The notes under the pieces were generated by a model. The model searched no databases. It saw only the letters and a list, made by a program, of their open reading frames with translations, and had not been told where the DNA came from. 64,000 nucleotides of DNA from Escherichia phage vB_Eco_F26, in the sequence record OP870145.1; one strand, 5' to 3'. Position numbers and translations under genes: made by a program. Of this stretch, positions 15,392 through 18,149 are shown piece by piece (position 1 is the first letter of the stretch; each line of letters starts with the position of its first letter).

Positions 15392-15637
15392 TTAACCACC
15401 AGTTACTTTCCACAAATCTTCGTTTGCAGCAATCCATTCAGTACGCTGATTTTCTTCATATACAGTAGTATATGCTGCTTTTTCTGAAGGGAACGTCTGG
15501 TAATGAGCACCAGAAATTTTGTGAACGTCAGAATAAAGAGGGAAAGCTACAGAAATTTCCTTTCCTTCAATTTTCTTATTTCCATCTAATTTCTGCTCAA
15601 ATGTTTTAATATTAACATAACCGCGAGTACTAGCCAT
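15392..15637 (-). CDS. soc: small outer capsid protein Soc (81 aa)
   Basis: Sequence MASTRGYVNIKTFEQKLDGNKKIEGKEISVAFPLY... matches recalled T4 Soc. Confidence 0.9.
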   Translation of the reverse strand: MASTRGYVNIKTFEQKLDGNKKIEGKEISVAFPLYSDVHKISGAHYQTFPSEKAAYTTVYEENQRTEWIAANEDLWKVTGG

Positions 15638-15667: not shown

Positions 15668-15675
15668 TATTTATA
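15668..15675 (-). promoter_or_regulatory. late promoter TATAAATA upstream of soc
   Basis: Exact TATAAATA on minus strand about 30 nt upstream of soc ATG. Confidence 0.6.
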
Positions 15676-16360
15676 CATCTTCTTTTCTGAATAAGTAAAT
15701 TAAATTCTTAAGAGCTGAACTTGTTACATCATATTTTCCTTTAAGCGCCTTTACAACCGGGCCTGTTGCTGGTTTACCTAAAGAAACCCATAACTCATGT
15801 ATTTCGCTTTTAAGCGGTTCATGCCAATGCGGCGCTTTTCTTTGCGCCCTTGAAGTTCCTTCTGAAATCTTTTTATTTCCGCCATTCGAATAAAACTTTT
15901 TCATTACTTCAGATTGCCGAGCTTTTCGTTCTGCTCTATTTTGGGCTATACGTTGTGAATTCTTCATCCGAGTTTTTGTTTCAGGATTGTTTAATCTAAG
16001 TTTATGTTCTAATCGTTGTTGCTCAGTCCATTTTCTTCCTTCTCCACCCTGACCACCAGGAGAAATATTAATGCAAGTATCTGGGTGTTTACGTTTTAAT
16101 GCAGATATTAGCTCGCGTTCAACTTCATATGATTTTTCTCTAGAACCATGGCATTTTGACCAACGTATTTTATAATTAAAACCATACTTACGATATATGT
16201 TCCATAGTATTTTGCCTGACCCCGGATATTTATCATCATATGGATTTACAATAAATGATTCATGTTTCCCAGCGTACCAAAAGACGCCTTTCGGCGTCCT
16301 AACTTTTACGATATATGTTCTATAAAATTTTTGTTTAATACCCATTATCTTGACGTTCAA
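15671..16360 (-). mobile_element. segF: GIY-YIG-like homing endonuclease (229 aa), segF-like
   Basis: N-terminal GIY-YIG-like motif (RTYIVKV ... GVFWYAGK), basic C-terminal DNA-binding region; between soc and gene 56. Confidence 0.65.
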
Positions 16361-16850
16361 AATTATGTTTATTTTTCAAATAATAAAGTTTAAAGATTTC
16401 TTCCGCATTCATTCCAAGGCCAGCAAACATATTTAATACGAAATGAAATATATCCACAAGCTCAAATTTAATTTCGAGCTGATCTTCTGGGGACATTTCA
16501 TCAATGCGTTTTTCTTGCGCTTCAATATAACGTGCTTTCCATTTTTTCCAAACTGCCGATGCATCTTTTTCACCACGTGACATTTCACCAAGAGAAGTCA
16601 GAAGTTCGCGGAATTCATCATCAATACAGTCTTTTTGTTCACGCATCCAAGAAACAACATCACCGGCAGTTTCTAATTTATCTGGATGATAACAGTATTC
16701 GCGGTCATTTGCTAAACGAATCTGTAAAGATTTCTGCATATCAAGCATTACCTGCAGCGGGTCTTTTTCATCACCGAGAATATCCCAATATTCATTTTGA
16801 GCTTTATCAGCGCCTTCGATCAGTTGACTACATTCGTTGAAATGTGGCAT
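16335..16850 (-). CDS. 56: dCTP pyrophosphatase (dCTPase/dUTPase, MazG-like), 171 aa
   Basis: 171 aa; locus and length match T4 gp56. Confidence 0.8.
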   Translation of the reverse strand: MPHFNECSQLIEGADKAQNEYWDILGDEKDPLQVMLDMQKSLQIRLANDREYCYHPDKLETAGDVVSWMREQKDCIDDEFRELLTSLGEMSRGEKDASAVWKKWKARYIEAQEKRIDEMSPEDQLEIKFELVDIFHFVLNMFAGLGMNAEEIFKLYYLKNKHNFERQDNGY

Positions 16851-16923
16851 GTTATTTTTCCTTTCAATTCATGGGTTAGTAGATTAATTATACAATAAAT
16901 ATATAAAGCAATAAGGAGGACAT

Positions 16924-17124
16924 ATGGTACAAAAATTAATGGCACTTGTTAATGCCATAAAAGGTAATAAGAAACGTATAGCTTTTACTATTACTGCTAT
17001 GATAGGAATTTTACTTTGGAATTTTGTTTTATCGCCAGTTGCTATTGCTCATGGCGTTAGTATTCCAGTAGTTACTCTTGATACATTCGTAGATTTAGCA
17101 TTTGCTTTAGTTGGGTTAATTTAA
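16924..17124 (+). CDS. small hydrophobic protein (66 aa), plus strand
   Basis: Strong SD AAGGAGGA 4 nt before ATG; two predicted TM segments; only convincing plus-strand ORF in window. Confidence 0.4.
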   Translation: MVQKLMALVNAIKGNKKRIAFTITAMIGILLWNFVLSPVAIAHGVSIPVVTLDTFVDLAFALVGLI

Positions 17125-18149
17125 ATCTTAGCATATTTAGATAGCCGCATTTTAGCCATTAACCCCTGGGCAATATTATTTTTCATATATTCCATAATTT
17201 GTTCAGGGGTTGCACCTTCCTTTCTAATCATATCATTAACATCTTTTGATTTCCAGGGAGATTTATCCCAAAACATAACCCTTTCTCCTGCATCAACTAA
17301 TTTAGTCATTCGTTTAATAGTGTCAGGGTGACGAGGTTCATTATCTAAAACCCACACTCGTCTATCTTTAAATGGAACAACTTCTAGGTCTAATTGACCA
17401 CCCGTAATAGCTATACCATTTTCAATAAAAAGTGAATCTATAGGTCCTTCTAGAACATATACATCACCATCTTTAACTCGTTCGACTCCATAAATTTTTG
17501 TTGCTTCAGGATAAGCTTTGATGGTGATATATTTTTGAGGAGCATCTTTCTTTAATGCACGTCCTTGAAACGACTCAGCTTTTCCATTAGCATTATAAAT
17601 TGGAATAACAAGACGAGGCTCAGAAATTTCCTTTTTATATGTTCCCGGTGCTATGCTATTAACTAATTTAGGCCATTCGGTTGTAAACCAAAGATATTTC
17701 CATTTATCCTTTGGAATACAACGAGCTTTTACATATTTTATAATTGGATGGTCTTCCGCCAGTTTATCTAATCTAACACATGACGGAAGAGATTTAATTA
17801 TTTTCTTCTCAGGTTGTTTAGGAAGTTCTTTAGGTTTTTCTACTGGACGACTTTTACCTTTTTCTTTTCTTATTTCAAAGATATACTCACGATATAAATC
17901 AGGTTCAAACTCCTTTAAATATATTCCGATTGGTGCATGATAGTTACAGTTATAACAATGAATATTTCCTTCATTATTATCACCATAATACCATCCACGG
18001 GCTTTATTCTGGTCGGTTTTTGAATCTCCACAAACTGGGCATCTAAACCGTAATTTAAAAGTTGAACTATTATTTACTTGTGTGAATTTAGGTAAATGAG
18101 CTAATGCACGGTATGCAAACTCATTATCAATCCAAGGTATTGATGACAT
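17121..18149 (-). CDS. 61: DNA primase (342 aa)
   Basis: Zinc ribbon CPVCGDS...CYNC plus Toprim region; 342 aa as T4 gp61. Confidence 0.9.
   Translation of the reverse strand: MSSIPWIDNEFAYRALAHLPKFTQVNNSSTFKLRFRCPVCGDSKTDQNKARGWYYGDNNEGNIHCYNCNYHAPIGIYLKEFEPDLYREYIFEIRKEKGKSRPVEKPKELPKQPEKKIIKSLPSCVRLDKLAEDHPIIKYVKARCIPKDKWKYLWFTTEWPKLVNSIAPGTYKKEISEPRLVIPIYNANGKAESFQGRALKKDAPQKYITIKAYPEATKIYGVERVKDGDVYVLEGPIDSLFIENGIAITGGQLDLEVVPFKDRRVWVLDNEPRHPDTIKRMTKLVDAGERVMFWDKSPWKSKDVNDMIRKEGATPEQIMEYMKNNIAQGLMAKMRLSKYAKI

Follow-up and report, generated by a model that had tools for sequence, protein, structure and literature searches.

Does a solitary open reading frame (ORF) that faces the opposite way to all convincing genes around it encode a protein, and what might that protein do? 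The question is raised by a stretch of 64,000 nucleotides from Escherichia phage vB_Eco_F26 (sequence record OP870145.1; hereafter the window), in which an ORF of 66 codons (ATG to TAA, 16924-17124, plus strand) lies between the minus-strand genes for dCTPase (gene 56) and primase (gene 61). A first-pass annotation had proposed either a real, oppositely transcribed gene for a small membrane protein or a chance ORF. We report here that the ORF is almost certainly a genuine gene, conserved and selected as a protein, and orthologous to T4T dam.1, RB69ORF029w and VR7ORF033w.

Conservation and selection of the 66-codon ORF

The strong Shine-Dalgarno (SD) sequence noticed previously, AAGGAGGA (16913-16920, plus strand), is located 3 nt ahead of the ATG, and a GGAG(G) element occurs at the same spacing in every lineage compared. 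The description as a lone plus-strand gene also holds: among plus-strand ORFs of at least 50 amino acids that are not buried in long minus-strand ORFs, it is the sole case with an SD sequence followed by an ATG.

A tblastn search with the 66-amino-acid protein retrieved 692 phage records, and in 685 of these at least 80% of the protein was covered. The T4 copy (AF158101, 17738-17938), located between dam and gene 61, is 92% identical. It is annotated as 'dam.1' in T4T (ADJ39749.1) and carries no annotation in the T4 reference records AF158101 and NC_000866. RB69ORF029w (NP_861719.1) and VR7ORF033w share 54% and 46% identity, respectively, with the window protein, and orthologues from Mosigvirus and Gaprivervirus fall within this range of 46-54%. 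The profile of PHROG 2024, a group with no assigned function, was matched with E = 2.4e-30 over its full length (residues 2-66 against profile positions 1-65 of 65), which places the protein in the Dam.1/RB69ORF029w group.

The ratio of nonsynonymous to synonymous substitution rates (dN/dS, Nei-Gojobori) was 0.10-0.30 within genera, indicating purifying selection. Pairwise values were 0.20 for the window and T4, 0.10 for RB69 and L013, 0.125 for Marfa and pzk, and 0.30 for VR7 and UPEC01. For the second copy of UPEC01 and Marfa, the proportion of nonsynonymous differences was 0.15 and that of synonymous differences was saturated at 0.88. Between genera synonymous sites are saturated, yet the proteins remain alignable, and the gene is conserved across T4-like phages. 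Because the protein is conserved in 692 records under purifying selection, we consider the ORF real and not a product of chance. The conserved SD sequence, the late-promoter box and the synteny described below also support a real, oppositely transcribed gene for a small membrane protein.

Disruption of the ORF in close relatives, which would have argued for a chance ORF, was not a general feature, as the 685 records with high coverage show. The single disrupted copy inspected is that of ECCR664 (L006, 1457-1653), in which a frameshift splits the orthologue. The 134-kb record bears the label 'complete', with just 100 annotated features; the frameshift could reflect a true loss or a mistake in sequencing or assembly. 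As one of 692 records, from a sparsely annotated genome, this copy was not accepted as a sign of dispensability.

A candidate late promoter upstream of the gene

The sequence AATAAATA (16894-16901, plus strand; core ATAAATA at 16895-16901) is found 22 nt ahead of the ATG and matches the T4 late-promoter box TATAAATA at seven of eight positions. In T4 this box spans positions -13 to -6 relative to the start site, the T at -13 is variable in T4-like late promoters, and late genes are transcribed in the direction of the plus strand of the window (Nolan et al., 2006; PMC1524935). The only mismatch in the window is at the variable -13 position, and the box is placed just upstream of the SD sequence, as in T4 late genes, the class that depends on gp55, gp33 and gp45. 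Since the box ends at 16901 and should occupy -13 to -6, transcription is predicted to start at about 16907 (16907-16908, plus strand).

We found ATAAATA or TATAAATA 16-22 nt upstream of the ATG in 19 of 19 homologous loci, despite unrelated upstream DNA. These loci represent three unrelated upstream contexts from Tequatrovirus together with RB69-type, Gaprivervirus and Klebsiella phages, that is, at least five unrelated contexts. The Klebsiella phages have a perfect cTATAAATA and hence the complete TATAAATA box. In the window, by comparison, the heptamer ATAAATA is about six-fold depleted (7 sites observed on both strands, two of them on the plus strand, versus 44 expected), and TATAAATA occurs 3 times versus 11 expected. 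The seven heptamers start at 2777(+), 15668(-), 16227(-), 16895(+), 45209(-), 47277(-) and 61117(-). Five of them are located 22-30 nt before an SD sequence and an ATG, belonging to soc, the 66-codon ORF, a 256-amino-acid GIY-YIG-like ORF (45179), gene 49 (47247) and a 70-amino-acid ORF (61091); no ORF follows the sites at 2777(+) and 16227(-). Late promoters have been described for soc and gene 49. Because the box is present in all 19 loci while the heptamer is depleted in the window, the 66-codon gene is very probably transcribed late.

Two points weigh against this assignment. Nolan and co-workers (Nolan et al., 2006; PMC1524935) listed no late promoter upstream of RB69ORF029w, and for this reason the late promoter is a feature that we infer. 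Moreover, no transcript, ribosome-profiling or proteomic evidence for the ORF was found in the searchable literature, in which we also found no paper naming dam.1 or RB69ORF029w and no ribosome-profiling study of T4.

A sigma-70 or middle promoter was considered as well and rejected, as the scan gave no plus-strand candidate upstream of the ORF. Nor did the scan detect a plus-strand terminator-like site downstream of it, so late transcripts would probably continue in antisense orientation into gene 61.

Predicted structure and topology of the protein

Structure prediction makes it highly likely that the 66-amino-acid product is an inner-membrane protein. The AlphaFold2 model, based on a 25-sequence alignment (predicted local distance difference test score 80), contains helices at residues 2-12, 16-42 and 52-63 and a loop between 42 and 52. 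The first helix (codons 2-12, 16927-16959, plus strand) is amphipathic and leads into the basic cluster KGNKKR (residues 13-18), with a predicted location in the cytoplasm. According to both the model and hydropathy, codons 16-42 (16969-17049, plus strand) form a transmembrane helix with W32-N33 at its centre and P38. The short C-terminal helix (codons 52-63, 17077-17112, plus strand) is hydrophobic and acidic and, judged from the model and the charges, is predicted to be periplasmic or at the membrane interface. All five positive charges are confined to residues 4-18, both acidic residues (D53 and D57) are located in this last helix, and residues 19-66 are continuously hydrophobic.

Family alignments revealed the signature W-N-[FYL]-x3-P-x-[AL]-A-x2-G-x2-[LI]-P-x-V-x-[LM]-[DE] at residues 32-53 (17017-17082, plus strand), in which W32, N33, P38, G44 and P48 are invariant or nearly so across the family. 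The same segment aligns to the C-terminal module of PF11351 (see below).

The two hydrophobic helices proposed in the first-pass annotation were only partly borne out. The hydrophobic character of residues 19-66 agrees with them, but there is one long helix (16-42), and the second (52-63) is short and contains two Asp residues; for the RB69 orthologue, TMHMM likewise gave a single transmembrane segment (21-41) (Nolan et al., 2006; PMC1524935). In the most probable topology, the N-terminus is cytoplasmic, a single transmembrane helix contains P38 and, in its middle, W32-N33, and the C-terminal helix is periplasmic or interfacial; a helical hairpin may be an alternative. Trypsin would be expected to yield only one short soluble peptide, LMALVNAIK, which may explain the absence of the protein from proteomic data.

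Distribution and synteny of the family

Profile searches separated two subtypes: subtype A is Dam.1-like, and subtype B is found in T4-like phages of Klebsiella, Enterobacter and Citrobacter and also as a second, tandem copy in Gaprivervirus. In UPEC01 (L005) the tandem paralogues are located at 1495-1692 (subtype A) and 1701-1901 (subtype B, intact). The second copy of VR7 (L004, 1584-1970) is frameshifted and fused to another frame.

The position of the gene is maintained in several genera. It is on the plus strand and convergent with the neighbouring minus-strand gene in the window, T4, RB69, VR7/UPEC01, the Klebsiella phages Marfa and pzk-kv8, and the loci L019 and L025. In the window the stop codons of the ORF and of gene 61 overlap by 4 nt (17121-17124) within a TTTAAA palindrome, and the same 4-nt overlap with gene 61 is present in T4, RB69, Marfa, pzk-kv8 and the metagenomic T4-like contig L025. 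In L019 a 124-amino-acid minus-strand gene replaces gene 61, and the 4-nt overlap is unchanged. The genes on the side away from gene 61 are variable among T4-like loci.

A HMMER scan of 1.84 billion representative proteins recovered only 16 clusters of 33-70 amino acids; all but two fragments have 57-70 amino acids. They share a basic N-terminus, approximately 12 hydrophobic residues, the signature in the form W-N-[FYL]-x3-P-x-A-A-x2-G-x2-L-P-x-V-x-[LM]-[DE] and a short hydrophobic helix. Some family members of 33-66 amino acids are labelled 'DNA packaging ATPase' in GenBank, namely QQG30882.1 (L005, 1701-1901), P0102 (Klebsiella phage SAKp28) and P0118 (Yersinia phage vB_YenM_P8), which is evidently a propagated annotation error. 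For the name 'Holin' that UniRef gives to the orthologue OE5505, no evidence is visible. The ORF is already present in databases as a hypothetical protein; in the searchable literature we found no description of the late box shared by all 19 loci, of how widely the family is distributed or of its link to a holin module.

Homologues in prophages and other contexts

Clear homologues of the T4-type proteins are encoded in enterobacterial prophages. Two size groups, of 92-96 amino acids (P0134-like) and 67-70 amino acids (P0119/P0128-like), were detected with hidden Markov model E values of 6e-5 to 5e-12 and an hhalign probability of 98%. They share the signature motif and a similar size with the T4 type. 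In contrast to the latter, their genes occupy the ends of temperate prophages, where tail-fibre, DUF2730 and lysozyme genes precede them, and the longer forms retain a charged linker and a WRQ motif that are missing in the T4-type proteins.

In the E. coli prophage integrated at yegD, a 70-amino-acid homologue is the last gene (L027, NZ_AP042583.1, 9002-9214; L024, 5001-5213). Of 5426 complete E. coli genomes, 25 contained the full yegD prophage region. It includes DUF2730 and lysozyme genes, the latter approximately 2 kb upstream of the homologue, an arrangement shared by the 96-amino-acid family. Rhodobacter phage RC1 has DUF2730 directly after its PF11351 gene. The 192- and 103-amino-acid genes between lysozyme and the homologue were tested as spanin candidates and rejected, as both products are soluble and have neither a transmembrane segment nor a lipobox.

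A further homologue is encoded after a tail-tip gene and close to an integrase gene. P0120 (59 amino acids; L023, 129-308) is encoded immediately upstream of a 352-amino-acid RelA_SpoT-family gene (325-1383) on a 2.2-kb metagenomic contig. These non-T4 contexts fit a late or accessory membrane function, without proving a role in lysis.

A probable remote relationship to the PF11351 membrane module

Profile comparisons suggest that the window protein is probably homologous to the C-terminal membrane module of PF11351 (GTA_holin_3TM). Three relatives, P0115 (from a syntenic T4-like contig), P0109 and P0120, gave in-register, sub-threshold matches to positions ~66-117 of the 123 positions of PF11351, and family members scored 11.7-15.3 bits. 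P0120 also matched phrog_3427 'holin' with E = 5e-4, and it was found among the 1.84 billion proteins with E = 6e-5 by a profile (A5) built from the two T4-like subtypes only. The 96-amino-acid homologue P0134 led to the prophage family of 92-96 amino acids and, weakly, to Rhodobacter phage RC1.

For comparison we used six alphaproteobacterial-phage holins (RC1, RcWaterboi, phiM5, StopSmel, POI1126 and Atu_ph08), all six encoded directly downstream of an endolysin gene. RcWaterboi gp27 is annotated as 'holin' and phiM5 gp23 as 'putative holin'; Atu_ph08 gp38 is also part of the set. Three of the six pass the PF11351 gathering cutoff of 24.8 bits (28.7-30.9 bits), RC1 reaches 24.2 bits and a 92-amino-acid protein (L053) 23.8 bits. 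With hhalign, the T4 family was aligned to the 92-96-amino-acid prophage family with a probability of 98.1% (score 68.4), and the latter to the holin set with 94.7% (score 48.6), whereas controls with reversed and 40 column-shuffled profiles did not exceed a score of 17. This chain connects the T4 family to the PF11351 C-terminal module.

Other observations speak against the relationship. The direct alignment of the T4 family with the holin set, although its score (34.7) is well above those of the controls, reached a probability of only 84% and extends over just 41 columns, all in a hydrophobic stretch. Searches with the window protein gave no match in Pfam even at E <= 10 and none in NCBIfam, and it does not reach the PF11351 gathering cutoff. 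Furthermore, it does not have the N-terminal helix-linker region and the WRP motif. PF11351 proteins typically have ~120-180 amino acids with an N-terminal helix, a charged linker and, ahead of the membrane helix, WRP, whereas in the window protein the N-terminal helix is connected to the transmembrane helix by the basic cluster alone.

Both groups share a collinear C-terminal module, which consists of a hydrophobic helix with a (L/W)-W-N centre, a loop with the pattern G/x-x-x-(L/I/M)-P-x-x-P-x-(D/E) and a short hydrophobic helix ending in Gly, and both would be expressed from phage late regions. The common module can be recognized in the alignment by eye. They differ in length (130-180 versus 66 amino acids) and in gene context: the window gene is adjacent not to an endolysin gene but to genes 56 and 61, and phages of this type already have the unrelated essential holin T. 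The window protein thus works out, on the evidence of sequence profiles, as a miniature, divergent relative of the PF11351 module and not as a PF11351 member by Pfam criterion, architecture or gene context. A Foldseek search of BFVD with the AlphaFold2 model gave only one significant match, the orthologue OE5505 with its automatically assigned name 'Holin' (others E >= 0.17), and no match was obtained when viral contigs were searched with the RC1 holin.

Gene neighbourhood and a minus-strand hairpin

The window represents the early region of a Tequatrovirus, with 99.8% identity over 1.4 kb to the Escherichia phages vB_EcoM-CHD94UKE2 and G3F7. From the sequence and the ORF list, the neighbouring minus-strand genes are soc (15392-15637), a segF-like GIY-YIG gene (15671-16360, called from a TTG start), gene 56 (16335-16850) and gene 61 (17121-18149). 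As called, the segF-like ORF and the 3' end of gene 56 share 26 nt (16335-16360), compared with an equivalent overlap of 11 nt in T4.

The gap of 270 bp between genes 56 and 61 described previously is correct (16851-17120). In T4, dam is located between gene 56 and the 66-codon ORF; it is absent from the window phage and many close relatives (window 16851-16923 versus T4 AF158101 16846-17625), and its absence accounts for the short gap. Tequatrovirus genomes differ in what precedes the ORF: gene 56 in some, dam or a homing endonuclease gene in others. The first-pass annotation had overlooked the absence of dam as the cause of the short gap, the late-promoter box and the existing annotations as T4T dam.1 and RB69ORF029w.

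A terminator-like hairpin with a T-run was detected by the scan on the minus strand at 16929-16958 (dG -8.9 kcal/mol, z = -2.2). It falls within the first 35 nt of the ORF, is antisense to codons 2-12 and is not part of the gene. The hairpin is a possible 3' end of gene 61 transcripts, and in Yersinia phage fPS-2 the corresponding site carries an annotated terminator. Because it is located at the start of the ORF, gene 61 transcripts would cross the whole ORF in antisense orientation. In RB69-type sequences the protein is conserved but the hairpin is not. An origin of the conservation in this weak and lineage-specific hairpin was rejected.

Possible functions and rival explanations

Our best guess, offered tentatively, is that the protein acts as a late accessory of lysis in the inner membrane. 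Transcription would run clockwise, starting at a gp55-type late promoter that belongs to the gene itself (AATAAATA), and translation would use the strong SD sequence. The product, a putative miniature relative of the PF11351 C-terminal membrane module, would expose its basic amphipathic N-terminal helix to the cytoplasm and its acidic, hydrophobic C-terminal helix to the periplasm, connected by one transmembrane helix whose Trp-Asn...Pro core could be a conserved polar or kink-forming element. Accumulating in the inner membrane late in infection, it might self-associate or bind a partner via the Trp-Asn/Pro helix and in this way modulate membrane integrity or the timing of holin-dependent lysis. 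Such a role would be accessory rather than that of the main holin, as T4 already has holin T. We regard as doubtful the more specific proposal that an overlooked late T4 gene brings a stripped-down PF11351-type module into T-even lysis control, as a depolarising trigger or as an anti- or co-holin acting on T, and that the same promoter may send antisense RNA into the primase gene.

Several observations weigh against a role in lysis. In T4-like phages the gene lies far from t, e, rI, rIII and the spanin genes, and in E. coli and metagenomic prophages the homologue is separated from the lysozyme gene by ~1.5-2 kb containing genes for soluble proteins. T4 t-null mutants do not lyse, and the 66-amino-acid protein therefore cannot by itself release T4 lysozyme. 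The charged cytoplasmic C-terminus typical of canonical holins of classes I-III, which is often combined with a dual start, is missing: the C-terminus is hydrophobic and the basic residues are all at the other end of the protein. A dual start (holin/antiholin) at M1 and M6 was rejected, as M6 is not conserved in RB69 or VR7. We take rcc00556 of RcGTA to be a PF11351 member on the basis of the Pfam family name. In favour of a link to holins, the genes rcc00555-556, called endolysin and holin in the papers, are reported to be required for lysis and for release of gene transfer agent particles (PMC5026251); the holin function of PF11351 itself was deduced from such a genetic requirement rather than from biochemistry (caveats in PMC3423380).

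Some of these points would be accommodated by a late membrane protein that acts outside lysis, in superinfection exclusion or a block of DNA entry, in envelope protection or as a membrane-anchored assembly helper, with the resemblance to the holin module reflecting only a shared helix for membrane insertion or oligomerization. We consider this, the main rival, possible, although on the unlikely side. It would agree with the missing linkage to any lysis gene in T4-like phages, with the location of the prophage homologue as the last gene, beside the attachment site and after tail-fibre genes, and with the homologue that precedes a RelA/SpoT-family gene. Accessory ('moron') genes, exclusion genes among them, are frequently found at the end of a prophage, and we know of no T4 lysis genetics that needed an extra gene. 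On the other hand, the known T4 exclusion proteins Imm and Sp are encoded by early genes, whereas the 66-codon ORF has a late box, and the sole similarity found at the family level points to proteins of lysis cassettes. Improbable, in our view, is a mainly transcriptional role, in which convergent transcription from the late promoter into the 3' end of gene 61 would produce antisense RNA or interference that helps to shut down the early primase-helicase operon late in infection, with the peptide being secondary. The convergence is strictly kept, including the 4-nt stop/stop overlap with gene 61 or the minus-strand gene replacing it, the late box is conserved and the scan showed no terminator-like site on the plus strand after the ORF. 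Nevertheless, this explanation accounts neither for purifying selection on amino acids where synonymous sites are saturated, nor for the conserved SD sequence, nor for homologues in unrelated prophages that have no primase gene. Antisense regulation of gene 61 is thus at most an additional role. A chance ORF, or non-coding spacer conserved as a 3' untranslated region or terminator of the gene 61 transcript, is very improbable and effectively excluded. The minus-strand hairpin and the missing annotation in the two T4 reference records would be in line with it, but the frame is intact with high coverage in 685 records, dN/dS is low, the protein family is recognizable in other genera and in prophages, and in RB69-type sequences conservation extends to the protein but not to the hairpin.

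Significance and comparison with known systems

T4 serves as the reference system for lysis and lysis inhibition in phages, but this conserved ORF is missing from its reference records. Addition of the ORF to the T4 annotations would make it visible to transcriptomic, proteomic and CRISPR interference screens. If the protein does act late at the membrane, it would add a component to a lysis system whose parts list (T, E, RI, RIII and the spanins) is regarded as complete, and would provide a minimal model, of 66 residues, for the membrane module of the poorly characterized PF11351 'GTA holin' family. If its loss has no phenotype, it would be one more conserved small membrane ORF with no assigned function.

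Canonical holins and pinholins (lambda S, phage 21 S68, T7 gp17.5) and the T4 antiholin RI are likewise small, late phage proteins of the inner membrane, and the predicted single-span topology with the N-terminus inside and the C-terminus outside presumably resembles that of T4 T and RI. They differ from the window protein in sequence, as Pfam/NCBIfam-type searches found no similarity, and canonical holins have the charged C-terminal tail, the dual-start motif or the position in a lysis cassette that the window gene does not have. The closest counterparts of the window ORF are T4T Dam.1, RB69ORF029w and VR7ORF033w, which agree with it in length, strand, convergent position with respect to gene 61, late box and SD sequence.

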